Position numbers and translations under genes: made by a program. The notes under the pieces are model-generated. The model was not told the DNA's origin. It worked only from the letters and a program-made list of their open reading frames with translations, and did no database searches. From Gaiellaceae bacterium (GTDB lineage Bacteria; Actinomycetota; Thermoleophilia; Gaiellales; Gaiellaceae), in NCBI GenBank assembly GCA_050011315.1, contig JBEKJI010000026.1:12991-36990 (forward strand): 24,000 bases of DNA, given 5' to 3'. Numbering within the stretch: the stretch's first letter is position 1; the number at the start of each line of letters is the position of its first letter. Below are positions 1 through 17,118 of this stretch, in pieces.

Positions 1-1
1 A

Positions 2-400
2 GCCGAGCGCTTTCAGACGAACCCGTTCGATGCCGGGCGGATATACCGCACCGGTGATCGCGTACGGCTTCGAGACGACGGCGAGCTCCTCTTCGAAGGG
101 CGTCTCGACCGGCAGGTGAAGGTGTCTGGTCAGCGCATCGAGCTCGGAGAGATAGAGCAGGTCCTCGCCACCCATCCAGAGGTGAGCGAGGTGGCGGTTG
201 TCGCACGTGAAGATGTGCCCGGACACAAGCGGCTCGTCGGATACGCGGTGCCAACGGCCGGGGGCAACCTGTCGCCGGCTGCGCTGAGTGGCTACCTCTC
301 GGAACGTCTTCCCCACTTCATGGTGCCGAGCCCGATCGTGATCCTCGACGTGCTTCCTCGATCGGAGCGCGGAAAGGTCGACCGCGACGCCCTTCCGTCT
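2..400 (+). other. NRPS domain: C-terminal subdomain of the upstream module's adenylation domain
   Basis: YRTGDRVR (A7), GRLDRQVKVSGQRIELGEIE (A8), LPHFMVPS (A9), PRSERGKVDR (A10 Lys). Confidence 0.85.
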
Positions 401-3400
401 CCTACTCGCGGTGACTTTGATCTCACCCCGGTCACCGGGATGATCGGGCAGGTGACGTCCGCAATGGCCGAAGTGCTGCGTCTCGAGTCGGTTAGTGCGG
501 ACGAGAACTTCTTCGAGCTCGGCGGCGACTCGCTCCTGGCGATCCGGCTCGCCGGGCGGTTGCGCGAGCGGCTCGGCGTCGATCTGGAGATCGGCGTGGT
601 CTTCGCCGCTCCGACCGCATCGGCACTCACCGAGTTGATCGAGGGGCATACGCCGGCCACGCCGAACATTCCGCCACTGCTACCGGCAACGCGCGCGTCG
701 ACGGCGCCGGCGAGCTTCGCCCAGCGCCGTACCTGGCTCTTCGGACTGATGCATCCGGAGTCGATCGCCTACCAGTCTGCGGTCCTGCTGCAACTTGACG
801 GGAGCTTGGACGAGGCGGCACTGGCCGGCGCGTTGAGCGACCTCATGCAGCGCCACGAGAGCCTGCGCACGTCCTTCGAGGAGCGCGACGGCGAGCCGGT
901 TCAGGTCATACACACGAAGCGCCCGCTGCCTCTCGAGACGGTCGACCTTCGCGGTGCTGGGCAAAGCGCATGGGAGCAACTCCTTCAAACGAAAGTCCGA
1001 ACTCGTATCGACCCCGGGCACGCGCCACTCGTGCGCTGGACGCTCGTGCGCCTGGAAGAAGAGGCGTGGGCGCTGATTCATGTCGAGCACCACCTGATCC
1101 TCGACGGCTGCTCGTTCGCCGTGCTCGTCGGAGAGCTCGCCGAGCTCTACTCAGCCCGAGTGGAGGAGCGTACGCCCGATCTACCGGAAGCGATCGTGCA
1201 GTTCCAGGACTACACGCACTGGGAGCGTGCGCTGGAGAAAAACGATGCGATCGCTCGGCAGCTCGAGCACTGGGTGCGGACACTCGATCGAGATCCTCCG
1301 CTGCTGGAGCTGCCGCTCGATCGACCGCGACCCTTGCGTGAATCCTTCTCCGGCGGCTCGATCCGGCTCCGACTCGAGCCCGAGGCCGCGGCGCGATTAC
1401 GCACGCTCGCCCATGCCGAAGGCAGCACGTTGTTCATGGCTGCCTTCGCCGCGTTCGCAACGCAATTGCACCGCTATACGGGGCGTTCCGACTTGCAGAT
1501 CGGCTCGGGACTAGCCAACCGCCGCGAGCCCGCGTCCGAGCGGTTGCTGGGGATGATCGTCAACACCGTCATCTTCCGCTTCGATCTCGCCGGCGACCCG
1601 ACCGTCCGCGAGCTATTGCGCCGCGTACGGAGCGTCGCACTCGACGCCTATGCCAACGCCGACGCTCCCTTCGATGCCGTCGTCGAGGCCGTGCGCCCAC
1701 CCCGAGATCCCCAGCGCTCGCCCCTCTTCAATATCCTCTTCTCGTTCAACGACCCTCCCCGAGGCGAGGAGCGTTGGTCGGGCCTGCGAGCGCGCCTCGA
1801 GCGCGAACTCCCAAACGGAACCGCGAAGGCCGATCTCGACATCATCGGCATCGACGACCATGACGGAGGGATCACCTTCGTCTGGGAACACTCCGACCTG
1901 TTCTTCGCCGCCACCGCCGAGCGCATGGCCCGTCACCATCTGTCGCTGATCGAGGAGTTCTCGAGCCGGCCCGACGCGCGCATATCCGAGCTCGACCTGA
2001 TACCGAGCGACGAGAGCCGGCAGCTGGCGTCCTGGAGCAACGGTGAGGACACGCGCGGCTACGAGCGCAATTCCACGATCGCCGATCTGTTCGAGGCGCG
2101 CGTCGCCGAGGACGCGCGGGCCGTGGCGGTGTCCTTCCAGGGCGAGACGCTCAGCTACGGGAGACTCGACCGCCGCGCAAACCGCCTGGCCCACCACCTT
2201 CGCGAGCTGGGCATCGATCGAGGCGCGCGGGTGGGCGTCTTCCTCGAGCGCTCGCTGGACATGATCGTGACCTTCCTCGCCATCGTAAAAGCGGGGGGAG
2301 CGTATGTTCCGCTCGATCCGGACGACGCGCCGGAGCGACTGCGCAGGTACGCCCAGATGCTCGACCTGCGACTCATCGTCACCGATGCCCGGCATCGCCC
2401 GCATGTGCCCGGCCCACCCGACCGGGTGACGGTCGTTGACGAACTGGTCGATCTAGCACGTGAGCCGGACACGCCTCCCACGCGCAGTAGCGAGCCACTC
2501 GACGCGGCCTATGTCATGTTCACGTCGGGCTCCACCGGAATACCGAAGGGGGTTGAGGTGCCGCATCGGGCGATCGTGCGCCTCGTGCGCGGCGCTGACT
2601 ACGTCCGCTTGGACGCACAGGAGACAATTCTCGGGATGGCACCCGCGGCCTTCGACGCATCCACTTTCGAGATCTGGGGAGCGCTACTCAACGGCGCGAA
2701 GCTCGTCCTGGCACCGCCCGGTACGCTCACGCTGGGAGAGCTCGCCGAGCTCGTGGCCCGTGAGAAGGTGAGCACCGTGTGGCTCACTGCCGGGCTGTTC
2801 CACCTCGTGGTCGACAACCGACCCGAGCTGCTGGGATCGCTGCGCCAGCTCCTCGCAGGCGGGGATGTCCTCTCTCCCGATCACGTACGCCGGGCACTTG
2901 CCGGGCTGCCGGAAGGAGCTGTTCTCATCAACGGCTACGGACCAACCGAGGCCACGACCTTCACGTGCACACACCGCATGACGGCAGGAGCCAGCATCGA
3001 TGGTTCGGTACCGATCGGGCGCCCCGTCGCCGGTAGCTCGGTCTACATCCTCGACGCGCATGGATCTCCTGCACCGATCGGCGTCGCGGGCGAGCTGTAC
3101 ATCGGCGGCGACGGTGTCGCGCTCGGCTACGCCGGCGATCCCGAACTGACGGCGCAACGCTTCCTGCCCGACCCGTTCTCGGCGGAAGAGGGCGCCCGGA
3201 TGTACAGAAGCGGCGACCTTGCCCGCTGGCGGGCGGACGGCACGATCGAATTCCTCGGACGAACGGATCGCCAGCTAAAGATCAGGGGCTTCCGCGTGGA
3301 GCCCGGCGAGATCGAGCAGGCGCTGCGGAGTCATCCGGACGTCGCCGACGGATACGTAGCGTCGTTCGAGAGCACCCCCGGCGAGCGAGCCCTCGCAGCC

Positions 3401-4963
3401 TATGTCGTTCCGTCCGCGGGCGCCGAATTGCGCGAGGCCGAGTTGCGGGCCCACGCCGCGCGCCTGCTGCCTCCTCACGCGATACCCGTAGCGTGGTGCT
3501 GGCTCGAGCGCTTACCGCTGACCGGCGTCGGGAAGGTCGATGCAGCTGCTCTTCCTGCGCCGATTATCCGCTCCCGCCGGTCCGTAGCTGGCCGTCCCGC
3601 GTCTCCACGGGACGAGTTCGAGCGCGAGCTGATCGCAATCTGGAAGCGGACGCTCGACTGCGACGCGGTCGATCCCGAGGACGACTTCTTCGATCTCGGC
3701 GGGCATTCGCTACTGGCAGTCGAGCTGTTCGACGCGATCGAGCGTTCGCTTGGCCAGTACCTGCCCCTCTCGACCATCTTCGAGGCGCCTACGGTGCGAC
3801 GTCTCGCCGCCGTCCTAATGGGCAACAGCTGGGAGGGCACGCGCAAGTCTCTCGTCCCGGTCACGCGGAGCGGCAGCCGCCCGCCGCTGTTTTGCGTCTC
3901 CGCGGGCGACGGCAACCCAACGGGATTCGGAGCGCTCGCGCGACGCCTCGGCGACGATCAGCCGCTGTTCGCGCTTCAACCTCGGGGAATCAGCGGCGGT
4001 GCGCCGCTCCACGTTTCGGTCGAGGCAATGGCGCGTCACTACGTCCGCGAGATCCGCAAGGTCTGCCCGCATGGTCCATATCTGCTTGCCGGACGCTGCT
4101 TGGGCGCTCTCATTGCCTATGAGATGGCCCGCCGTCTCGAGGCCGCCCGGCAACGAGTCAGGTTGCTCGTGGTGATGGATTCGGGCGGTCCCCTTCAAAC
4201 GCGACGCCGGCTCGCCGATGGAACTTCGTTCGACCTGGTCATGGGTAGCGCCCTGCGACGATCGGGCTTGGACGTCGACGTCTTCTCCTTGCGTGGGACC
4301 GAGGAATTCATGCGCTGGCTCGCCGAGCCGGTGCACTACGGCGGCGACGAGACCCCGCCGATCAATCGTTACCTCGAGGAGCTCTATCGCTCGCGAAGCG
4401 ACGTGCGCGACGTCTATCCCGACCTCGCCGGCGAGGATGCGCGCGGTTTCATCGACTGGACTTGGATCTCGGGCCGCCCCGAGGAGGGCCTATGCGAACG
4501 GCTCCTTCCCCCGCCAAGCGACCCGAGCCTGCGATCCCAGGATGGAAGCCGAAAGCAGAGCAGGTTCGACAAGATCCGCGAGCGGCTCGCCTGGCGCGCC
4601 GCTGAGGCCAGAGACCTCGTCACCGGCGGCCGCCTTCCCGGCGCCGGCTCACGTCTCCGCGAGCGCATCAGAGACGTGGGGACGCGTGCAGCGCTCGGCT
4701 ATCGAGCCGGCGCGTACGGAGGGGTGGTCACGCTGATACGCTCGGCCGAGTATCGGGTGCACACGCACCTCGACCGTTGGTTCAACCTCGACACGGGCGG
4801 AGTCGTCGAGGCGCATGTCTCGGGAACACATCGTTCGATGTTGCGCGAGCCCGATGTGGCCTCACTCGCCGAGTCCATAAGGGGACTCATCGACGCCGCG
4901 ATCGATGAACGAGACGAAAAGCCATCACTGGAAGCTCCCGCCGAAGCGCCTGCAGCTCGCTGA
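2..4963 (+). CDS. Non-ribosomal peptide synthetase, 5'-truncated by the window edge; visible architecture (A C-terminal part)-T-C-A-T-TE, i.e. the terminal module plus the end of the preceding one
   Basis: The frame is open from nt 2 (AERFQTNPFDAGRIYRTGDRVRLRDDGELLFEGRLDRQVKVSGQRIELGEIE = A-domain A7/A8 cores), so the GTG at 116 in the ORF track is internal. Motifs seen: FFELGGDSL, HHLILDG, AYVMFTSGSTGIPKG, NGYGPTE, GELYIGGDGVALGY, YRSGDLARW, GRTDRQLKIRGFRVEPGEIE, LTGVGKVD, FFDLGGHSL, and a TE region. Stop TGA 4961-4963. Confidence 0.95.
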   Translation, partial: AERFQTNPFDAGRIYRTGDRVRLRDDGELLFEGRLDRQVKVSGQRIELGEIEQVLATHPEVSEVAVVAREDVPGHKRLVGYAVPTAGGNLSPAALSGYLSERLPHFMVPSPIVILDVLPRSERGKVDRDALPSPTRGDFDLTPVTGMIGQVTSAMAEVLRLESVSADENFFELGGDSLLAIRLAGRLRERLGVDLEIGVVFAAPTASALTELIEGHTPATPNIPPLLPATRASTAPASFAQRRTWLFGLMHPESIAYQSAVLLQLDGSLDEAALAGALSDLMQRHESLRTSFEERDGEPVQVIHTKRPLPLETVDLRGAGQSAWEQLLQTKVRTRIDPGHAPLVRWTLVRLEEEAWALIHVEHHLILDGCSFAVLVGELAELYSARVEERTPDLPEAIVQFQDYTHWERALEKNDAIARQLEHWVRTLDRDPPLLELPLDRPRPLRESFSGGSIRLRLEPEAAARLRTLAHAEGSTLFMAAFAAFATQLHRYTGRSDLQIGSGLANRREPASERLLGMIVNTVIFRFDLAGDPTVRELLRRVRSVALDAYANADAPFDAVVEAVRPPRDPQRSPLFNILFSFNDPPRGEERWSGLRARLERELPNGTAKADLDIIGIDDHDGGITFVWEHSDLFFAATAERMARHHLSLIEEFSSRPDARISELDLIPSDESRQLASWSNGEDTRGYERNSTIADLFEARVAEDARAVAVSFQGETLSYGRLDRRANRLAHHLRELGIDRGARVGVFLERSLDMIVTFLAIVKAGGAYVPLDPDDAPERLRRYAQMLDLRLIVTDARHRPHVPGPPDRVTVVDELVDLAREPDTPPTRSSEPLDAAYVMFTSGSTGIPKGVEVPHRAIVRLVRGADYVRLDAQETILGMAPAAFDASTFEIWGALLNGAKLVLAPPGTLTLGELAELVAREKVSTVWLTAGLFHLVVDNRPELLGSLRQLLAGGDVLSPDHVRRALAGLPEGAVLINGYGPTEATTFTCTHRMTAGASIDGSVPIGRPVAGSSVYILDAHGSPAPIGVAGELYIGGDGVALGYAGDPELTAQRFLPDPFSAEEGARMYRSGDLARWRADGTIEFLGRTDRQLKIRGFRVEPGEIEQALRSHPDVADGYVASFESTPGERALAAYVVPSAGAELREAELRAHAARLLPPHAIPVAWCWLERLPLTGVGKVDAAALPAPIIRSRRSVAGRPASPRDEFERELIAIWKRTLDCDAVDPEDDFFDLGGHSLLAVELFDAIERSLGQYLPLSTIFEAPTVRRLAAVLMGNSWEGTRKSLVPVTRSGSRPPLFCVSAGDGNPTGFGALARRLGDDQPLFALQPRGISGGAPLHVSVEAMARHYVREIRKVCPHGPYLLAGRCLGALIAYEMARRLEAARQRVRLLVVMDSGGPLQTRRRLADGTSFDLVMGSALRRSGLDVDVFSLRGTEEFMRWLAEPVHYGGDETPPINRYLEELYRSRSDVRDVYPDLAGEDARGFIDWTWISGRPEEGLCERLLPPPSDPSLRSQDGSRKQSRFDKIRERLAWRAAEARDLVTGGRLPGAGSRLRERIRDVGTRAALGYRAGAYGGVVTLIRSAEYRVHTHLDRWFNLDTGGVVEAHVSGTHRSMLREPDVASLAESIRGLIDAAIDERDEKPSLEAPAEAPAAR
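437..643 (+). other. NRPS domain: thiolation (PCP) domain 1
   Basis: FFELGGDSLLAIRL core; the phosphopantetheine Ser codon TCG is at 530-532. Confidence 0.85.
701..2011 (+). other. NRPS domain: condensation domain
   Basis: N-terminal SFAQRRTWLF...AYQ motif and catalytic HHLILDG at 1088-1108. Boundaries are approximate. Confidence 0.85.
2078..3553 (+). other. NRPS domain: adenylation domain of the terminal module
   Basis: Cores A1 LSYGRLDRRANRLA, A2 LAIVKAGGAYVPLD, A3 AYVMFTSGSTGIPKG (2507-2551), A4 FDAS, A5 NGYGPTE, A6 GELYIGGDGVALGY, A7 YRSGDLARW, A8 GRTDRQLKIRGFRVEPGEIE, A10 GVGKVD (Lys codon 3533-3535). Confidence 0.9.
3602..3814 (+). other. NRPS domain: thiolation (PCP) domain 2
   Basis: FFDLGGHSLLAVEL core; Ser codon TCG at 3707-3709. 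Confidence 0.85.
3875..4903 (+). other. NRPS domain: type I thioesterase with a Cys nucleophile and an enlarged lid
   Basis: PLFCVSAGDG (oxyanion region). GRCLG at 4091-4105 occupies the GxSxG position (Cys codon TGC 4097-4099). VVMDS Asp codon at 4178-4180. SGTHRSML His codon at 4829-4831. There are 217 residues between the Asp and the His. Confidence 0.8.
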
Positions 4964-5570
4964 ATCGTCCGTACACGTCTGGCGAGCCGACCTCACGGCC
5001 GCCGATGACGGCGTCGGCGAGTTCCTCTCGGCGGACGAGCGCGTGCGCGCACAACGCTTCGTCTTCGCAAGAGATCGCGAGCGGTGGGTGCGGGCGCGAG
5101 GGATCTTACGAGCGCTGCTTGGTCGCTATCTCGACCTCGATGCGAAAACGCTGAGCTTCACCTCCGGGCCGAACGGAAAGCCGGTTCTGCTCTCGGAATC
5201 GGTGAGCCTTCACTTCAACCTTTCCCATTCGGGAGACCTGGCGCTGTACGCGTTCGCAAGATTCCCAGTGGGAGTCGACGTCGAGGTCGCACGGCCGGGA
5301 ATCGACGCGGTCGCGCTGGCCGAGCGAGCGCTCGGCAGCGACGAGGCCGAGCGGCTGCGGCGGCTGCCGGCCGGCGAACGCGAGCGAGAGTTCCTGCGTG
5401 CCTGGGTGCGCCACGAGGCCTCGCTCAAGTGCCGCGGCAGCGGGCTCGGCACGCGCGCCGATGTGAGCGGGCTGTGGCTCGCCGACGTGGACGTCGGTCC
5501 CGGCGCGGCCGCGGCCGCCGCTCTTGACGGGACGCCGGAAGAGCTCTGTCTCTGGGATTGGTGTGCCTGA
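4905..5570 (+). CDS. Sfp-type 4'-phosphopantetheinyl transferase
   Basis: VHVWRADL, SGPNGKPVL, FNLSHSGDLALYAF, VGVDVE, FLRAWVRHEASLKCRG (W..K/HEA..K). ATG 4905 overlaps the NRPS 3' end by 59 nt, and no later canonical start precedes the conserved N-terminus. Confidence 0.85.
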   Translation: MNETKSHHWKLPPKRLQLAESSVHVWRADLTAADDGVGEFLSADERVRAQRFVFARDRERWVRARGILRALLGRYLDLDAKTLSFTSGPNGKPVLLSESVSLHFNLSHSGDLALYAFARFPVGVDVEVARPGIDAVALAERALGSDEAERLRRLPAGEREREFLRAWVRHEASLKCRGSGLGTRADVSGLWLADVDVGPGAAAAAALDGTPEELCLWDWCA

Positions 5571-5616: not shown

Positions 5617-5845
5617 GCGCCGTTTTCGTTTGGCCCGTTGGCGCGCATACTCGGCACGAAGCCGGCACATGTTCGAGCGTCTTTCCTCGATACCGTGCTA
5701 CGCCCCGTGGGAGGGTTGTTAGAGCGCCAAGCGAAACGAAGCACTCCATCGCCTGGCCGCGCTCGGCGGCGCGATACTGCGTCCTCGGTCGCGCCCGTAG
5801 CCTACGGGTCTTCATTCCGCTTGGCGCTCTGGGGAGGAGGGCGGA
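5617..5845 (+). repeat. Copy A of a modular hairpin-rich intergenic element (unclassified)
   Basis: 5650-5842 aligns by eye nearly base-for-base with 16872-17118. Hairpins at 5652-5664, 5673-5690 and 5794-5808. A 13/13-bp long-range helix pairs 5721-5733 with 5819-5831. It ends in GGGGAGGAGG (5831-5840). Confidence 0.8.
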
Positions 5846-5884: not shown

Positions 5885-6802
5885 ATGCGCCGAGACGCAC
5901 GGCGTCCTCTTTCGCCGAGCGGGATTCCCACGCAGACGGCGAATCAGCCGGAAGTGGATCTCAACCGGACCATCGACCGCTTCCTAGACTCGCCCTCCTT
6001 CTCGGCGGCGACGAGGCGCGCCTACCACATCGACCTGGAAGAGTTCGCCGGTTTCCTGGGTCGGAAAGGCGCGACTCTGGAACAGGTGGACGGTCGCCTG
6101 CTCGCCCTCTACGCCAGTGAGCTCGCCGCCGCCCGCCCCGGACGGCAGCCGCGACGGCTCTCGGAACGAACGATCGCGCGCAAGCTGGCCGCGGTGCGCG
6201 GGCTGATCGGCTTCGCGCTTGGCCCCGCGCGGGTACCCGAGCTGGCGCTGAAACCACGTCGCTCGCGCCACCTACCCGAGACTCCGCGGCCGGACGAGAT
6301 CGACGAGCTCCTACGAGCGAGCGAGGGGAAAGGCCCGCTCGCACTCCGTAATCGCGCCCTGCTCGAGCTGGTCTACTCGGCCGGGCTGCGCAGCGCCGAG
6401 GCGGTCGGGCTCGACCTGGCCGACGTGGACTTCGAGAGCGAGACCGTGCACGTGCGCGGCAAGGGCGGCAAGGAACGTGTCGTGCCACTGGGCGAAGAGG
6501 CGGCCGCCTGGGCAGGGCGCTACCTGCACGAGGCCCGCCCCGCGCTCGCCCGTGGCGCCGAGGATGCCTTCTTCCTCTCCGCGAGTGGACGCCGCCTCGA
6601 CACGAGCACGCTACGCCGCCTCGTCCGCCACCCGCACCGCCTGCGCCACGCCTTCGCCACGCACCTGCTCGAGGGCGGCGCCGACCTGCGCGTGATCCAG
6701 GAGTTGCTCGGGCACAGCTCGCTCTCGACCACCCAGGTCTACAGCCACGTCGACGCGCGCCGGCTCAGACGCGTCTACGACCGAGCGCATCCGAGATCCT
6801 GA
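5885..6802 (+). CDS. xerC: Tyrosine recombinase, XerC/XerD family (XerC-like)
   Basis: All catalytic residues are present: AGLRSAE (Arg), [10 protein letters not shown] (Lys), [12 protein letters not shown] (His, Arg), [16 protein letters not shown] (His, Tyr). The start is uncertain (ATG 5885, or in-frame GTG 5954). The segment before HxxR is shorter than in typical XerC. The C-versus-D assignment is tentative. Confidence 0.8.
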
Positions 6803-6879: not shown

Positions 6880-7776
6880 ATGGAACGAGAAGTCGAAGGC
6901 TTTCTCGCCTTACTCGCCGCGCGCCGTTCGCGGCAGACTGTCGATGCCTATCGCCGCGATCTCGCGGACGCCGCCCGGGTGCTCGAGAAGCCTTTACAGG
7001 CAGTCTCGACCGACGACCTCGAGCGCTACCTGGCCGATCTGCGCTCGCGCGGCCTGGCGGCGGCTACGGTGGCGCGCCGGCTTGCCTCGCTGCGCTCCTT
7101 CTACCGCCATCTCGTTCTCGTCGGGGCGCGTGGCGACAACCCGGCCGCCGAGCTGAGGCCACCGCGGCGACAGCGGCATCTTCCCCACCCACTCTCGCCG
7201 GCCGAGGCCGAGCGCCTGATCGAGGCGGCCGCCGGCGTTACGCCGCGCGATCTGCGTGACCGGGCGCTGGTGGAACTTCTCTACGGCGCCGGGCTGCGCG
7301 TGAGTGAGGCAACCGGACTCGAGCGGGCCGGTGTCGATCTCGAGAGCCGGATCGTGCGCTGCCTGGGCAAGGGCGACAAGGAGCGAATCGTCCCGATCGG
7401 GCGCCAGGCGGTCGAGGCGCTGACTCGCTACCTGGCGCGCGGGCGCCCCTATCTCGAGCGCCGTCTCCGTCCCGAGCTCTTTCTCAACGCCCGCGGCGGT
7501 GCGTTGACCCGAGCCGGCGCCTTCCTGATCCTGCGCCGCCTGGCCGAGGTCGCCGGGCTCGAGCCCGAGCGCATCCATCCCCACCTGCTCCGCCACTCCT
7601 TCGCCACGCATCTGCTCGAGGGCGGCGCCGACCTGCGCAGCGTTCAGGAGATGCTCGGCCACGCCGATCTCTCCACCACCGAGCTCTACACCCACGTCTC
7701 CGACCAGCGCCGGCGCGAGACCTACTTCCGCGCCCATCCGCATGCCAAGCGGCGCACGAAGCTGACAAGTCACTAG
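6880..7776 (+). CDS. xerD: Tyrosine recombinase XerD-like
   Basis: AGLRVSEA, GKGDKERIVPIG, FLNARGGALTRAGAF (XerD-type), [40 protein letters not shown] purine-rich tract (gaaagaagaaag) lies upstream of the ATG. Confidence 0.85.
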   Translation: MEREVEGFLALLAARRSRQTVDAYRRDLADAARVLEKPLQAVSTDDLERYLADLRSRGLAAATVARRLASLRSFYRHLVLVGARGDNPAAELRPPRRQRHLPHPLSPAEAERLIEAAAGVTPRDLRDRALVELLYGAGLRVSEATGLERAGVDLESRIVRCLGKGDKERIVPIGRQAVEALTRYLARGRPYLERRLRPELFLNARGGALTRAGAFLILRRLAEVAGLEPERIHPHLLRHSFATHLLEGGADLRSVQEMLGHADLSTTELYTHVSDQRRRETYFRAHPHAKRRTKLTSH

Positions 7777-7789
7777 GGGTGAACAGCGC

Positions 7790-7905
7790 ATTCAGATTCT
7801 CTGGGTCGCTAGCACCAAGCGATGCTAGGACGCAGGGAGCGTTCGTAGCGGCGCTACGGACGCGACTGAGGACAACGCAGCGCGCCGCGTGATAGCGGGC
7901 CAGAG
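7790..7905 (-). repeat. Copy C: inverted 3'-half copy of the intergenic element
   Basis: The reverse complement of 7790-7905 aligns with 16972-17075 of copy B (tctggcc, cgctgcgttgtcctcRgtcg, tccgtagc..gctacgaa, ctgcgtcctagcatcgc, cRacccag) and with 5752-5831 of copy A. The hairpin is at 7844-7858. Confidence 0.7.
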
Positions 7906-8045
7906 CAGGAGATGCTCGGCCACGCCGACCTCTCCACTCCGAGCTCTACACCCACGTCTCCGACCAGCGCCGGCGCGAGACCTACTTCCGCGCCCACCCG
8001 CACGCACGGCGCAGGTCCGCGCCTGCGGCCAAGAAAGTCCACTAG
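7906..8045 (+). pseudogene. Displaced duplicate of the xerD 3' end (frameshifted, no 5' part)
   Basis: 7906-8045 matches 7645-7776. The first ~106 nt differ by only 3 substitutions plus one cac->tc change that removes 1 nt. The tails diverge with 3-nt indels, and both end in cactag. With the 1-nt loss corrected, it would read ..EMLGHADLST.ELYTHVSDQRRRETYFRAHPHARRRSAPAAKKVH*. Confidence 0.75.
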
Positions 8046-8055
8046 CGATCGGTCC

Positions 8056-8592
8056 TTAACGGCGGGGGCCGCGTGAGCTGGCCTTGCGTTTGAGCGAGGC
8101 GACGACGGTGCGGGCGGCAACGCGCAGGTTCTCGTCCTGAGAGTCGTCGTCGGCCATGCCGGCCAGCATCCCGAGCGTGTCGGGCTGCGCGGAGCCGTTG
8201 CGCAGGCAGAGGATGGCGAGCCGGCGAACGGCGCTGTTCGAGTCCCGGCTGGCAAGTATGTGCAGGTTGGAGCGAACGGAGTTGACCGCTCCGGGATGCT
8301 CGCGCGAGAGCAGCTCCAGCGAGACCAGCGCCGAGCCGCGGCAGGCCGGACTCTCGTCGTCGAAGCCGCGCTTCAAGAGCTCCAGCTTCTGGCGGAAGCG
8401 GAACTGGCCCACGGCCTTGTAGGCGACCGCTCGCTCGCGGAAGTCGGCGTCGCGCGCCGCCGCCTCGATCTCTTCGTCCCACTCGCTGCGTATCTGCGCC
8501 AGCTCGCGCTCGGCTCCGCGCATGGCCAGCCCGTCCGCCTCGGTCGCTGCCTGGGCAAGCGTCATCGGCTTCTCTCCTCCCGTTTCACTCAT
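8056..8592 (-). CDS. HEAT-repeat domain protein (function unknown)
   Basis: Three HEAT-like units (DESPACRGSALVSLELL, DSNSAVRRLAILCLRNG, DSQDENLRVAARTVV). Its ATG (8592-8590) overlaps the citrate synthase TGA (8591-8589) as ATGA. Confidence 0.6.
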   Translation of the reverse strand: MSETGGEKPMTLAQAATEADGLAMRGAERELAQIRSEWDEEIEAAARDADFRERAVAYKAVGQFRFRQKLELLKRGFDDESPACRGSALVSLELLSREHPGAVNSVRSNLHILASRDSNSAVRRLAILCLRNGSAQPDTLGMLAGMADDDSQDENLRVAARTVVASLKRKASSRGPRR

Positions 8593-11349: not shown

Positions 11350-11720
11350 AAGGAAACGGCGATAAAGCCCTGACCATCGAGACGCTCGATAACCGCTTCC
11401 GCGAACGGCCCTACGAGGTCGAGCTAGAGGCGCTCGAGTTCACCTCGCTCTGCCCGCTCACCGGCGCCCCCGACTTCGGTGTCCTCGTCATCCGCTACGT
11501 GCCGGACGCCTCCCTGCTCGAGCTGAAGTCGCTCAGGGACTACCTGACCTCGTTCCGCGAGCGCAAGATCCTCCAGGAGGAGGTCGTCAACGCCGTGCTG
11601 GACGAGATCGTCCGCTCGTCGTCCCCGCGCTTCGCCGAGGTCGAAGGCATCTTCAACGTTCGTGGCGGAATCGAGGCGCGAGTAAGGGCCCAGATGGGAG
11701 AGAATCCCCTCGATGATTAG
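11346..11720 (+). CDS. queF: NADPH-dependent 7-cyano-7-deazaguanine (preQ0) reductase, unimodular type
   Basis: EFTSLCPLTGAPDF (catalytic Cys) and ELKSLRDYL (QueF motif). The TTG start at 11346 overlaps the upstream TGA as TTGA. Confidence 0.85.
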   Translation: MKGNGDKALTIETLDNRFRERPYEVELEALEFTSLCPLTGAPDFGVLVIRYVPDASLLELKSLRDYLTSFRERKILQEEVVNAVLDEIVRSSSPRFAEVEGIFNVRGGIEARVRAQMGENPLDD

Positions 11721-11775
11721 AGCTCGTTTCGAAACGAAGCGCTCCGCCGGCTGGGCCGTCATTTGAAACGAGCTC
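11720..11775 (+). repeat. Copy D: short module of the intergenic element, with an 11-bp inverted repeat and a 12-bp palindrome
   Basis: gagctcgtttc (11720-11730) is the exact reverse complement of gaaacgagctc (11765-11775). CGTTTCGAAACG lies at 11725-11736. gaaacgaagcgctccgccg (11731-11749) matches the motif found in copies A and B. Confidence 0.65.
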
Positions 11776-12518
11776 CCAAGACCGATCTGAGAGGTAGGAC
11801 GGCGATCGTCTGCGGCGCCTCCTCGGGCATCGGCCTTGCGATCGCCGAGGAGCTCGACGAGGCGGGTGCCAACGTCTCGATGTTCGCCCGGCGCCGGCTG
11901 CTACTGGAGAAAGAGGCCGACCGCATCGGCGCGTTGGCCGTGCAGGGCGACCTGACCAGCCCGCGTGACCTGCGCAACCTGGTCGAGCGCACGGTCGGCA
12001 CCTTCGGCGGCATCGACATCCTCGTTAACAACGGTGGCGGCCCGCCGGCCGGGCCGGCGCTCGAGATCGACGACGAGTCGCTCGAGGACGCGGTCACGCT
12101 GCTGCTCTTCTCCGCTGTCCGGCTGACCAACCTCTGCCTGCCCCACCTACGAGGTAGCAAGGCGGGGCGGATCATCAACATCAGCTCGAGCGCCGTCCGC
12201 GAGCCGATCGACAACCTCGCCCTCTCGAATGCCGTCCGCCCCGGTCTCGTCGGCTGGGCCAAGACGCTGTCCCACGAGCTCGGTCCGCAGGGAATCACCG
12301 TCAACTCGATCGCGCCCGGACGGATCGCAACCGGGCGCCTCGAGGAGCTCTACAAGACGCGCTCACGCGACGACGACCTGGCGCAGATCCCGCTCGGTCG
12401 CTTCGGCGATCCGCACGAAGTTGCCGCCGTCGTGGCCTTTCTCGCCTCCGACGCGGCCAGCTACGTCACCGGCACGCTGATCCCGGTCGACGGCGGCGCG
12501 AGCAGAGGATTGCTCTAG
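11763..12518 (+). CDS. Short-chain dehydrogenase/reductase (FabG-like SDR)
   Basis: GRTAIVCGASSGIGLAIA (TGxxxGIG), NNGGG, SSSAV...SNAVRPGLVGWAKTLSHEL, ITVNSIAPGRI. The TTG start at 11763 is the only start upstream of the Rossmann motif. Confidence 0.85.
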   Translation: MKRAPKTDLRGRTAIVCGASSGIGLAIAEELDEAGANVSMFARRRLLLEKEADRIGALAVQGDLTSPRDLRNLVERTVGTFGGIDILVNNGGGPPAGPALEIDDESLEDAVTLLLFSAVRLTNLCLPHLRGSKAGRIINISSSAVREPIDNLALSNAVRPGLVGWAKTLSHELGPQGITVNSIAPGRIATGRLEELYKTRSRDDDLAQIPLGRFGDPHEVAAVVAFLASDAASYVTGTLIPVDGGASRGLL

Positions 12519-12551: not shown

Positions 12552-13565
12552 GTGATGTCCGTTCGCTCGGCCCTGTCGGCTCTCGCGGCGCTGACCGGTG
12601 TGGTTTTCGTCGCTCTCTGCCTGTACGCGTTCATCTCGCCTTCGAGCTCGTACCTACTGCTTCCGGACAGCCCGCACCCGCTCGCTCCCCTCGTAGAGGT
12701 GAAGGGAGGGCACGACAACGGTCAGGGCGGCTTCTATTTCGTGGACGTGATCGAGCGGCGAGCGACGCTGGCGGAGCGCTACGTGTCCTTCCTGCGCGAC
12801 GGCGGCAAGCTCGTGTCGCATCACGATGTAGTGCCCGACAACCTCAACGAACGCGAGAGCGCGCGGCTGGACACCGCCGCCATGGTCCGCTCGAAGACAT
12901 TCGCCGAAGCGGTAGCACTCAAGTACCTCGGCTATCAGGTCGTCATCCATCCGTCGGGAATGCGGATCGAGCAGACCGCCGAGGGCTCACCGGCGGCCGC
13001 CAAGCTGCTCCCCGGCGATGTGATCGTGGCCGTTGACGGGAAGGCGGCCCTGACCGAATCGCGTTTGCGCGCTCTCATCGACCGGCACCGGGTCGGCCAG
13101 ACGGTCGAGCTCACCATCGTCCGCGTCGGCCGGAGACAGAAGCTGGCGATTCAAACCTACGCTCTGCGCTCGCGCCCGCGCGTGCCGATGATCGGCGTCT
13201 TCCTCACGCAGGCGGCGAGCATCAAGCTCCCGATAAAGGTCGAGATCAACGCCGGTAGTGTCGTCGGGCCGTCGGCCGGGCTCGCCTTCGCGCTCGAGCT
13301 CGCCGAGAAGCTCGACGGCAACGCCGATCGCGGATACCGGGTTGCGGCGACTGGCGAGCTCGCCCTCGACGGCAGCGTGGAGTCGATCGGAGGAGTCGAA
13401 CAGAAGGTGATCGGCGCGAGACGTGCCGGAATCGAGATCATGCTCGTGCCAGCTGGGGATAACGCGACCGAGGCCCGGCGTTACGCAGGGGATATGAAGA
13501 TCATCGCGGTCACCAGTTTTCAACAGGCGTTGCGTACCCTGGCAACGCTACCGCCTCGCAAGTAG
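12552..13565 (+). CDS. PDZ domain-containing S16 (Lon C-terminal proteolytic domain) peptidase, YlbL-like, with an N-terminal TM anchor
   Basis: N-terminal hydrophobic helix. PDZ-like GSPAAAKLLPGDVIVAVDG. Lon-type GPSAGLAFALEL (Ser) and GGVEQKVIGARRAG (Lys). The start may be ATG 12555. Confidence 0.8.
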   Translation: MMSVRSALSALAALTGVVFVALCLYAFISPSSSYLLLPDSPHPLAPLVEVKGGHDNGQGGFYFVDVIERRATLAERYVSFLRDGGKLVSHHDVVPDNLNERESARLDTAAMVRSKTFAEAVALKYLGYQVVIHPSGMRIEQTAEGSPAAAKLLPGDVIVAVDGKAALTESRLRALIDRHRVGQTVELTIVRVGRRQKLAIQTYALRSRPRVPMIGVFLTQAASIKLPIKVEINAGSVVGPSAGLAFALELAEKLDGNADRGYRVAATGELALDGSVESIGGVEQKVIGARRAGIEIMLVPAGDNATEARRYAGDMKIIAVTSFQQALRTLATLPPRK

Positions 13566-15527: not shown

Positions 15528-16811
15528 ATGAACGACTGGATCGAGCGCGACGAGACCCGCGTCTGGCACGGCTTCACCCAGATGGCGACCTTCGCCCTGA
15601 ACGAGCCCGTGATCGTCGAGCGAGCCGAGGGACGCGAGCTGATCGACACGGAGGGGCGCCGCTACCTGGATGCGATCTCCTCGCTCTGGGTGACGACGCT
15701 CGGCCACCACGTGCCCGAGCTCGACGCCGCCCTCACCGCGCAGCTCGGCAGGGTCGCCCACACGACTATGCTCGGACACGGCAACCGAGCCGCGGTCGAG
15801 CTCTCTGAGGCGCTCGCCCGGGTGGTGCCGGTCGCAGACCCGCACTTTCTCTTCGCCTCCGACGGCGCCTCGGCCGTCGAGCAGGCGCTCAAATGCGCCG
15901 TCCAGTACTGGCGCAATATCGGGCTCGAAGAGAAGTCCGGCTTTCTGGCGCTGCGCGACGCCTACCACGGCGACACGATCGGAGCTCTCTCGCTCGGGGA
16001 AGGCTTCCACAGCGAGCACTTCGATCTGCTTCGCTTCCCGGTGCTGCGCGCCGGCGGCTACGCGAGCCCCGGCTGGGCCGAGGAGGCCTGCAGCCTGGTT
16101 GCCGCCAACGCCGAGCGACTGGCCGCGGTCGTGATCGAGCCGCTTGTGCAGGCGGCCGGAGGCATGTGGATCGGCCGTCCCGAGGACGTGCGCATGCTCG
16201 CAGAGAGCTGCCGCGAGAACAGGGTGCTGCTCGTCTGCGATGAAGTGGCGACCGGTTTCGGGCGCACGGGTAGCCTCTTCGCCAGCCGGCGCTGCGGCAT
16301 TCAGCCCGACCTACTCGTGCTGGGCAAGGGCATCACCGGCGGCTACTTGCCGATGTCGGCGACGGTGGCGAGCGGTCGCGTCTATACCGCCTTCATGGGT
16401 GAGGACCTGGGCCCACGCACCTTTTACCACGGCCACTCCTACGGAGGGAACGCGCTCGCGGCCGCCGTCGCTTCGAGACATCTCGAGCTGCTCGCGGAGT
16501 GGAACGTGCTCGCGAACGTCGAGGCGCGCTCGGAGGAGCTGCGACAGCTCCTCGACGAGCGGATCGCTCCGCTGGCGCAAGTGGCGGACGTGCGCCTGTG
16601 CGGGCTGCTTGGCGGTATCGAGCTGAAGCCCCACATCGACGCCCGTGCGGTCTGCGCCGAGGCGGTTAGGAACGGAGTTCTCCTGCGATCTCTTGGCCAG
16701 GTCGTCCCGGTGGTGCCGCCGCTGACGATCACGAGCGAAGAGCTGGAGCGAATAGTCTCGGTGCTGGAACAGGCGCTCGCCGCCGTCAGCGAGAATAGCT
16801 TCGATGCTTAA
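15528..16811 (+). CDS. bioA: Adenosylmethionine-8-amino-7-oxononanoate aminotransferase
   Basis: VWHGFTQM, DEVATGFGRTGSLFA, LGKGITGGYLPMSAT (PLP Lys), YHGHSYGGN, and the bio cluster context. Confidence 0.9.
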   Translation: MNDWIERDETRVWHGFTQMATFALNEPVIVERAEGRELIDTEGRRYLDAISSLWVTTLGHHVPELDAALTAQLGRVAHTTMLGHGNRAAVELSEALARVVPVADPHFLFASDGASAVEQALKCAVQYWRNIGLEEKSGFLALRDAYHGDTIGALSLGEGFHSEHFDLLRFPVLRAGGYASPGWAEEACSLVAANAERLAAVVIEPLVQAAGGMWIGRPEDVRMLAESCRENRVLLVCDEVATGFGRTGSLFASRRCGIQPDLLVLGKGITGGYLPMSATVASGRVYTAFMGEDLGPRTFYHGHSYGGNALAAAVASRHLELLAEWNVLANVEARSEELRQLLDERIAPLAQVADVRLCGLLGGIELKPHIDARAVCAEAVRNGVLLRSLGQVVPVVPPLTITSEELERIVSVLEQALAAVSENSFDA

Positions 16812-17118
16812 TCGCTCGTTTCGAAACGCGGCACTCCGCCGCCCGAGTGCGCGCGGTGGTACAACGCTGAATCGGCACGAAGCCGGCACGTTTTCGAGTG
16901 CGTTTTCTCGATACCGTGTTACGCCCCGTGGGTGGGTTGCTAAGAGCCAAGCGAAACGAAGCACTCCACCGTCTGGCCGCGCTCGGCAAGCACGCTGCGT
17001 TGTCCTCGGTCGTATCCGTAGCCTCCAGCTACGAATCCGGCGCTGCGTCCTAGCATCGCACTCACCGATCGCACCCAGTCGGCGAGTCTTCATCCCGCTT
17101 GGCACTCGGGGAGGAGAG
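16812..17118 (+). repeat. Copy B of the modular hairpin-rich intergenic element, filling the bioA-bioB gap
   Basis: Palindrome CGTTTCGAAACG at 16817-16828. The motif occurs at 16823-16841 and 16953-16971. Hairpins at 16873-16885, 16894-16911 and 17017-17033. The closing helix pairs 16946-16953 with 17096-17103. It ends in GGGGAGGAG (17108-17116). Confidence 0.8.

Follow-up and report, generated by a model that had tools for sequence, protein, structure and literature searches.

The 24,000-nucleotide stretch of Gaiellaceae DNA analyzed here (the window; positions 12,991 to 36,990 of contig JBEKJI010000026.1 in assembly GCA_050011315.1) carries two tandem tyrosine recombinase genes, one xerC-like (5885-6802) and one xerD-like (6880-7776, plus strand, 298 amino acids), and the 3' end of the xerD-like gene is present twice. 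The last 132 nt of this gene (7645-7776) are repeated at 7906-8045, with about 97% identity across the first 106 nt, and the two copies enclose a spacer of 129 nt (7777-7905). Further downstream, a convergent HEAT-repeat gene (8056-8592, minus strand, recognized from its open reading frame (ORF) and the annotation of the locus) is followed by citrate synthase. Pairwise alignment and a repeat finder resolved the duplication into two matching blocks, 7645-7676 with 7906-7937 (32 nt, 97%) and 7679-7745 with 7939-8005 (67 nt, 97%). Between these blocks CAC reads TC in the second copy, where ACCACC (7675-7680) corresponds to ACT-CC (7936-7940) with one nucleotide lost, and apart from this indel three C/T substitutions separate the copies over 106 positions. 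A near-perfect direct repeat of 100 nt within 24 kb is far beyond chance.

Copy 1 (7645-7755, plus strand) spans the codons QEMLGH to HPHAKRR of the live xerD, including the catalytic His and the Tyr region. It is followed by TKLTSH and a TAG stop (7756-7776), a replacement end, hereafter tail 1, that was delimited from the tails of relatives and by alignment to full-length repeats of the kind found in the spacer; positions 7747-7776 read KRRTKLTSH and stop. Copy 2 (7906-8012, plus strand) keeps 107 nt of conserved catalytic-domain coding sequence plus a tail of its own, tail 2 (8013-8045), which encodes RSAPAAKKVH and a stop. Translated from 7906, copy 2 reads QEMLGHADLST and then runs out of frame, with the nucleotide missing at 7937-7939; in frame from 7938 it reads ELYTHVSDQRRRETYFRAHPHARRRSAPAAKKVH to a stop at 8043-8045, and its tail in the restored frame is RRRSAPAAKKVH. 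The two tails begin to diverge after HPHA, are unrelated beyond RR(R) and differ by indels and unrelated sequence in addition to point changes, and both end in CACTAG. The 3' end of the target gene therefore stands in direct repeat around an insert, with the upstream copy completing the gene and the downstream copy left as a fragment. A preliminary description of this locus had reported the duplication and an inverted repeat-element fragment between its copies. Every checked detail of the former was borne out, including the three C/T changes and the frame break at CAC, and 7777-7905 indeed aligns in reverse to repeats at 16939-17115 and 5719-5836.

Judging from its alignments and profile matches, the gene at 6880-7776 is best called XerD-like. 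Its product aligns to E. coli XerD (1a0p, 5dcf) through residue 289, the end of HPHA, with an E-value of 4e-62 against 1a0p. It passes the NCBIfam profile of the XerC/D tyrosine recombinase subfamily (NF001399, score 316.6, cutoff 279) and lies just under the cutoff of the XerD equivalog TIGR02225 (312.6, cutoff 329.6), a profile that ends at residue 289. Because the residues past HPHA lie outside both the XerD fold and the family profile, the tail can be considered dispensable and a swap tolerated. Two homologues, P0022 and P0190 (P and L numbers denote proteins and loci of relatives), end exactly at HPxA.

The spacer is an inverted, truncated copy of a repeat resembling a miniature inverted-repeat transposable element (MITE), and all of it is homologous to the non-coding MITE; with only 129 nt between copies 1 and 2, we found there no integrase, no cargo and no credible ORF, nor any sign that an integrase-bearing element had been present in the past. 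Aligned to full MITEs, the spacer starts at or just after the xerD stop and runs to GCGGGCCAGAG, and the outer ~30 nt of the right arm, with the terminal repeat, are missing. Comparison between lineages divides it into a variable left arm with a small hairpin (7777-7798, plus strand) and a 107-nt MITE core (7799-7905, plus strand) between the inverted repeats CTCTGGGTCGC and GCGGGCCAGAG, the latter also delimited by folding and by homology to full MITEs. The join to copy 2 is thus internal to the MITE, ~30 nt before its terminal repeat, and not at the end of the element or at a defined core. Alignment to full MITEs places the putative illegitimate junction, GGCCAGAGCAG to GAGATGCTCGG, at 7896-7919 (plus strand). 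Here the right sub-terminal arm of the MITE, GGCCAGrCrG-TGrAGTGCTTCG, joins xerD TTCAGGAGATGCTCGG where the two are imperfectly similar: the first bases of copy 2, CAG-GAGATGCTCGG, align with the MITE continuation TG(G/A)AGTGCTTCG, and the MITE arm GGAGTGCTTCG matches xerD GGAGATGCTCGG at 8/11 positions. A canonical MITE insertion does not describe this arrangement, as one terminus is missing and the flanks are repeats of ~110-140 nt, not of 2-9 bp.

We compared the window with loci from ENA and JGI metagenome samples; the window contig is itself from an ENA MEGAHIT metagenome assembly. The nearest proteins with a tail-1-type end are P0002 (92% identity, ending in AKLTRH) and P0003 (91%, ending in TKLTSN). 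The P0002 lineage was assembled in five samples (L002-L006) and the P0003 lineage in six (L007-L012), and in both lineages, as far as the contigs extend (L009 ends in the spacer), xerD with a short tail precedes the same spacer, and another xerD 3' fragment stands between this spacer and the HEAT gene. The junction between MITE and copy 2 is the same in L007-L012, and in L002-L006 it is followed by a 48-nt deletion. Tail-1-type sequences (KLTSH, KLTRH, KLTSN) are confined to these carriers. In relatives that lack the insert, xerD and the HEAT gene abut (L181, L182), and in some the two stop codons overlap, as TTAG in L094 and as CTAG in L180. Outside the known carrier lineage no second tail was found among 80 GTDB genome loci and 80 JGI metagenome loci retrieved with a XerD query; the metagenome loci included only two close relatives, L094 (89%) and L095 (92%, on the same contig as L003), and all genome loci and remaining metagenome loci were at or below 83%.

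The relatives also reveal which of the two ends is native. The closest insert-free locus, L013, whose protein P0001 is 94% identical to the window XerD, has a single xerD end, ARRKPAPAIKKS and stop. Tail 2 of L002 (ARRKPATAIRKT and stop), together with ~30 nt of its flank (beginning GGCTTATCCCATTAG), is collinear with the xerD end and flank of L013, and tail 2 of the window is of the same type. Since tail 2 and the L002 flank match an insert-free locus and tail-1 types occur only in carriers, the native end is the one displaced into the downstream copy, and the upstream end was acquired. The preliminary description had proposed looking in related genomes for a xerD with the downstream type of end, and L013 supplies one.

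Copy 2 is decaying. The window and L007 share the same one-nucleotide loss (CAC to TC), L007 has an additional GA insertion (+2), and L002 bears the 48-nt deletion. Frame-breaking changes thus affect copy 2 in all three lineages. Judging from them, copy 2 is not under coding selection, so that the two copies are not both maintained by purifying selection. The relation between the copies differs among lineages. In L002, a 51-nt segment of copy 2 differs from its own copy 1 at 9/51 positions and from the window's copies at 2-3, which argues against its being duplicated from the gene now resident there; in L007, both copies have the same sequence over the distal 51 nt, and it is of local type. 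Trees of the xerD body and of the HEAT gene do not unite the carriers: the window and L002 group with the non-carrier L013, and L007 groups with the non-carriers L177, L178 and L094.

Other lineages have tails of an R-T-K type (ARTKAR, ARRRTKTPASK) that tail 1 resembles, and this resemblance, with differences from tail 2 that go beyond point changes, points to two alleles rather than a local duplication. The last 2-3 codons of tail 1 may derive from the MITE. The TAG stop of xerD directly adjoins the MITE's left end; in alignments it corresponds to a TAG or AAG in front of the left ends of full MITEs. In L174, of the P0021 lineage, the MITE end AGAGCCACTAACGGAATGAAGACC supplies S-H-stop to a xerD tail that reads AKSH and stop; this alignment favors a MITE origin of the same residues in tail 1, whereas in the L178-type alignment the MITE starts just after the stop. 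Three independent assemblies of the P0021 lineage (L174-L176, 3869-3981) all end inside a MITE, less than ~100 nt past the xerD stop. We also considered the window's own xerC-like paralogue (5885-6802) as the source of a tail and rejected it, as it is only 75-81% identical, and 75% over 32 nt.

The repeat family to which the spacer belongs is multicopy and non-coding, and its members are long imperfect palindromes of ~120-180 nt with terminal inverted repeats. Repeat finding and alignment identified a full-length copy in the window at 16939-17115, opposite in orientation to the spacer, and a shorter copy at 5719-5836 with a perfect 13-bp terminal inverted repeat (AGAGCGCCAAGCG / CGCTTGGCGCTCT); a miniature copy at 11717-11780 consists of termini only and starts on the stop codon of the upstream QueF-like gene (positions of all three are on the plus strand). 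The termini vary between copies and are complementary within each (AGAGCGCCAAGCG/CGCTTGGCGCTCT, AGAGCTCGTTTCG/CGAAACGAGCTC and AACTCGAAG/ATTCGAGTT). Further copies occur in the relatives L003, L008 and L178, and the family was found only in a close clade of relatives, with 80-90% identity of copies between lineages. MITE copies begin on or right after stop codons: the TAG of the QueF-like gene (11718-11720), the TAA of an aminotransferase gene (16809-16811, for a copy at 16809-16860) and the TAG of xerD. These positions fit a TAG/TTAG-like target, and YWAG tetranucleotides flanking the copies are a hint, and only a hint, of an IS5-like target.

Filled and empty sites demonstrate that the MITE is mobile. 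L008 and L009 carry a 171-nt full MITE nested in the spacer that is absent from L007, L010, L011 and L012, and its absence from these sister contigs indicates a recent transposition into the older MITE fragment. The nested copy (L008 3184-3354, L009 3931-4101) has CAAG on both sides, and the empty site reads CTAG. Likewise L178 and L179 have a full MITE directly after the xerD stop, in the orientation of the spacer, at a site that is empty in L182, L181 and L094. No transposase gene was seen in the window or the retrieved loci, among which no dedicated search for a cognate insertion sequence was made. A second repeat of 78 nt (5644-5721 and 16865-16942, 85% identical) lies directly upstream of two of the MITE copies and forms with them a composite repeat ending in GGGGAGGAG, which has no Rfam match.

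The core of the spacer is conserved to an unexpected degree. Over its 107 nt the window is identical to L007 at 105 positions and to L002 at 104, while the 22 nt at the start of the spacer match at 16/22 against L007 and ~11/22 against L002. At 4-fold degenerate sites, identity between the window and L007 is 0.65 in the xerD body and 0.67 in the HEAT gene; between the window and L002 the values are 0.70 and 0.78. The core is therefore significantly more conserved than the 4-fold sites in either flanking gene (Fisher p between 4e-5 and 4e-12) and than the 22 nt beside it (p = 3e-4 and 7e-8). Each strand of the core folds into a long, stable hairpin (z = -3.9 and -3.5), and the small hairpin in the 22-nt left arm covaries, with TGAA..TTCA, CGAA..TTCG and GGAA..TTCC in the three lineages. 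Searches for a known function or target were negative: no Rfam family matched the whole window at the gathering threshold or 7600-8100 at E<=1, a consensus scan of 7500-8300 returned no promoter or terminator and no U-tract terminator signature, a tRNA and transfer-messenger RNA scan found none of these usual integration targets, and IMG/VR viral contigs contained no match to a 22-nt core pattern.

We propose, at a probability of about one half, that the locus is a C-terminal displacement scar, left by recombination of two xerD alleles across a MITE, with a homologous exchange on the left side and an illegitimate one on the right. The setting is a clade in which xerD and a convergent HEAT gene as a rule abut, with an active MITE that tends to land on or next to stop codons and in some lineages sits directly behind the xerD stop. 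Donor DNA consisting of xerD, the short basic tail 1, its stop and the MITE would have entered a cell with an empty allele. The left crossover would be ordinary homologous recombination inside xerD, and the right one would join the right sub-terminal arm of the MITE (..GGCCAGrCrGTGGAGTGCTTCG..) to the similar xerD TTCAGGAGATGCTCGG (codons QEMLG). The product would be a live xerD with tail 1, a MITE minus its outer right arm, and the recipient 3' end from CAGGAG on, that is, copy 2 with tail 2. Copy 2 would then have decayed by frameshifts and deletion and been partly homogenized with copy 1 by gene conversion, and recombination would have carried the arrangement from one lineage to another, removed it by acting between the direct repeats, or done both. 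This step of homology-facilitated illegitimate recombination (HFIR) between alleles, and the later history, are what we infer; the anatomy and polarity, the identity and truncation of the MITE, the empty sites, the decay of copy 2 and the occurrence of the arrangement in several lineages can be read directly from the sequences. The proposed donor-type state does occur, in L178/L179, and both the mismatch of L002 copy 2 to its own copy 1 and the unrelated tails speak for two origins.

These results recast the interpretation in the preliminary description, which had read the duplication as the attL/attR-like trace of an integrating element that carries a replacement 3' end for its target. The geometry and the polarity of that proposal stand, with a live upstream copy and a displaced native end downstream. 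The integrating element is not supported: only a 129-nt truncated MITE separates the copies, the right junction lies inside that MITE, and the second tail is lacking in more distant Gaiellaceae at the 80 genome and 80 metagenome loci compared. The alternative offered there, a repeat copy that dragged along the tail of a xerD paralogue, is closer to our best model, except that the tail would come from a xerD allele, an orthologue, and not from a paralogue such as xerC. The rearrangement scar is real but fairly ordinary, apart from its oddly conserved hairpin.

Several observations weigh against displacement by inter-allelic recombination. A core that is 97-98% identical where synonymous sites are 65-78% and the neighboring 22 nt 50-73% identical is not predicted by a passive scar. 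The 8/11 patch at the right junction is weak evidence and could be a coincidence. No donor allele with exactly tail 1 and a full MITE was recovered among the loci compared, and the MITE of L178 is only ~80% identical to the spacer core. The copies in the window differ at only 3/106 positions plus the indel, and donor and recipient must then have been very close, or gene conversion has acted; the identical, local-type distal segments in L007 likewise mean that gene conversion must be invoked. The distribution of the carriers, which is not monophyletic, would require extra transfers or losses. A simple vertical history from a single origin is insufficient for this reason, and so is a simple recent spread of the whole arrangement as a cassette, as the 22 nt and tail 1 are far more diverged than the core. 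Three accounts fit the core conservation and carrier distribution together, namely an old scar with repeated loss through its direct repeats and selection on the hairpin, recombinational movement of the arrangement or of its core alone between lineages, and a small mobile cassette.

The last of these accounts would make the locus a miniature non-autonomous integrative cassette: a circle of ~260 bp, composed of the xerD 3' fragment and the MITE hairpin, would have inserted Campbell-style into the 3' end of xerD by a tyrosine recombinase or by simple homologous recombination, yielding attL/attR-like repeats and moving between lineages. We think this rather improbable. Its geometry is identical to that of icd/icdC around e14 (PMC13626634), it would account for carriers that are not monophyletic and for a core that remains 97-98% identical where 4-fold sites differ by ~30-35%, and the one-nucleotide loss common to copy 2 of the window and of L007 would be harmless if cassette-borne. 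The crossover pattern is mixed: in L002 the proximal part of copy 2 is of cassette type and the tail is local, as predicted for a single crossover near HPHA, whereas in L007 both copies are local over the same 51 nt, for which a single crossover does not suffice without later conversion. Against it stand the lack of an integrase, cargo or recognizable core site, the fact that tail 1 and the 22 nt, left of the core, have diverged far more than the core itself, unlike the parts of one recently spread piece, and the failure to find a copy in IMG/VR viral contigs or away from xerD among ~180 loci. A circle of ~260 bp is also a poor substrate for recombination. More broadly, a unit of ~260 bp, the xerD-like arm plus the 107-nt hairpin, could be a selectively maintained or self-propagating module, as a miniature cassette or a domesticated insulator; the near-invariant core, the non-monophyly, and ORFs and contig ends at the same QEMLGH boundary (described below) would be the signatures of such a maintained or mobile unit, which we nevertheless hold to be improbable. 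The MITE hairpin may also have been co-opted as a bidirectional terminator or insulator, or as a stabilizer of RNA 3' ends, between the convergent transcripts of xerD and of citrate synthase-HEAT, an account that concerns the maintenance of an old scar and is compatible with any origin. We regard it as unlikely. The excess conservation of the core over 4-fold sites and the adjacent 22 nt, its stability on both strands, an ancestral state without intergenic space between the convergent genes, and the persistence of the layout in three diverged lineages despite ~110-nt direct repeats that should delete readily all argue for it. However, no U-tract signature or Rfam family was found, near-invariance in place of compensatory change is unusual for a simple hairpin, L094, L180, L181 and L182 do without the hairpin, L177, L184 and L013 carry unrelated inserts in its place, and the case rests on three lineages.

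An origin within one genome is a further alternative, in which a tandem duplication or template switching copied the final ~130 nt of xerD, during or after a MITE insertion in the same chromosome, and the tails diverged later. In its favor, the window's copies share 97% identity and those of L007 show no difference over the distal 51 nt, the two tails close with the same letters, CACTAG, and the microhomology patch could equally mediate unequal exchange between sister chromosomes. Unequal exchange in a MITE-bearing chromosome, though, should have left both tail 1 and the MITE a second time beyond copy 2, where there are instead a different tail and a MITE-free flank. In L002, this tail and its flank align directly with the insert-free L013, the L002 copies differ from each other far more (9/51) than its copy 2 differs from the window's copies, and the tails differ by indels and unrelated sequence, not by substitutions alone, all of which make an intragenomic origin hard to credit. 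Lastly, a mis-join or collapsed repeat in a metagenome contig could in principle produce a false duplication, as the preliminary description had noted; the window was assembled with MEGAHIT, and MITEs do break assemblies, as in the three assemblies of the P0021 lineage. But the same order of parts recurs in 11 further contigs from different samples and pipelines, and the copies differ from each other within each genome, with lineage-specific changes, so that an assembly error is practically excluded.

Displaced 3' ends are known from other systems, and recombination between xerD alleles can be set beside three of them. At icd/icdC in E. coli K-12, PMC13626634 (citing Hill et al. 1989) describes an insert, the cryptic prophage e14 (and phage 21), that carries a replacement 3' end and so keeps the target gene intact; the former 3' end is shifted downstream, where it stands in direct repeat as the C-terminal pseudogene fragment icdC, and recombination between the repeats restores a chimeric functional gene. 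The geometry of the window equals this one, and two features of the e14 type are present, the direct repeat of the 3' end and relatives with an empty site (L013, L094, L180-L182). The recombination module is absent: whereas e14 measures 15 kb and brings along an integrase and site-specific att sites, the insert here is a 129-nt truncated MITE with a new tail of 21-30 nt, without a recombinase or a defined core and with an illegitimate right join.

The second comparison concerns the orphaned 3' ends of rhs, contact-dependent inhibition (CDI) and type VI secretion system (T6SS) effector loci, for which HFIR has been proposed. According to PMC5361080 (citing Jackson 2009, de Vries & Wackernagel 2002, and Meier & Wackernagel 2003), the 5' part anchors homologous recombination, the other end joins illegitimately and the old 3' end shifts downstream, and the resulting arrays then travel between strains via homologous recombination. 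As in copy 2 of the window, an orphan end in these loci keeps a piece of the conserved region. Those loci, however, are toxin/immunity modules under diversifying selection, while here a housekeeping recombinase has swapped a dispensable basic tail of 9-13 residues, and the only passenger is a MITE fragment with no evident selective cargo. In Coxiella, the MITEs QMITE1 and QMITE2 overlap gene 3' ends, for example that of enhC, and supply C-terminal residues or the stop codon (PMC5896051; also PMC2229807 and PMC2759123). They share with the repeat described here the form of a small palindromic non-coding element at or over a stop, with a stable hairpin in the 3' untranslated region; unlike it, they are simple insertions with short or no target duplications, whereas the window's element is truncated and flanked by a ~110-140-nt duplication of the host gene. 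We file this locus as a further example of 3'-end displacement by illegitimate recombination, with an unusual passenger, a truncated MITE, and an unusual target, a housekeeping recombinase.

If displacement between xerD alleles is correct, the locus would be a clean natural example, from an uncultured actinobacterial family, of how an essential housekeeping gene can receive a new tail through a MITE and illegitimate recombination and still remain intact. It would also illustrate that the displaced end can linger as a gene-conversion partner, and that species can share or lose scars of this kind. The locus further marks the junction of xerD and the HEAT gene as an insertion hot spot and defines a MITE family with stop codons as landing sites, which bears on the annotation of gene ends in these genomes. 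Should the core prove to be under selection or mobile, the locus would offer a modest instance of a domesticated MITE or of a minimal integrative cassette.

The convergent junction of xerD and the HEAT gene is an insertion hot spot, to judge from the variety of what it holds. L177 has a MazE-like antitoxin pair there (4064-4639) and L184 a PHP-domain gene (211-933); unrelated non-coding sequence occupies it in L013 (1471-1610) and L002 (4082-4195), the latter with a tandem GGGGTCTGACCCC hairpin pair. The choice of a recombinase gene as target, which the preliminary description had found unusual, appears incidental, because the same junction hosts the MazE-type pair, the PHP-domain gene, unrelated sequence and, in L178, a plain MITE.

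A C-terminal peptide search for further carriers yielded mainly short ORFs. Many of these, from diverse Gaiellaceae, have their start precisely at MLGHADL or VQEMLGH, the point at which the duplication in the window starts. They include P0234 (a cluster of 54), P0241-P0254, P0173, P0177, P0186 and P0242, the last of which has 35 amino acids and lies on a 242-kb contig. Two such loci were inspected: L184 (1-125) is a contig-edge truncation, with the edge between AGGAG and ATGCTCGG, and L183 is a frameshift-ridden assembly. The short ORFs could be contig breaks at a repeat boundary, the behavior of gene callers at contig edges, or additional orphaned pieces of such genes.

The last ~111 nt of xerD (7645-7755) are also conserved at 4-fold sites, with identities of 0.68-0.95 between lineages (~19 sites) against 0.54-0.84 in the rest of the gene. 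The comparison covered L007, L174, L177, L178 and L180, holds for non-carriers too and is a small sample. A constraint on the nucleotide sequence itself, at the place where the convergent HEAT transcript would be expected to end, may be the cause.

The surroundings of the recombinase pair vary as well. The xerC-like and xerD-like genes are adjacent in the window, whereas they are separated by a DUF4304 gene in L002 (2426-2785) and by a gene for a PQQ-like repeat protein in L007 (1782-2769). Upstream of the pair, positions 1-5570 of the window encode non-ribosomal peptide synthetase modules with internal direct repeats (484-549 and 3661-3726), and the ORF at 4905-5570 resembles a 4'-phosphopantetheinyl transferase, judged from Pfam matches of the homologous L002 genes.

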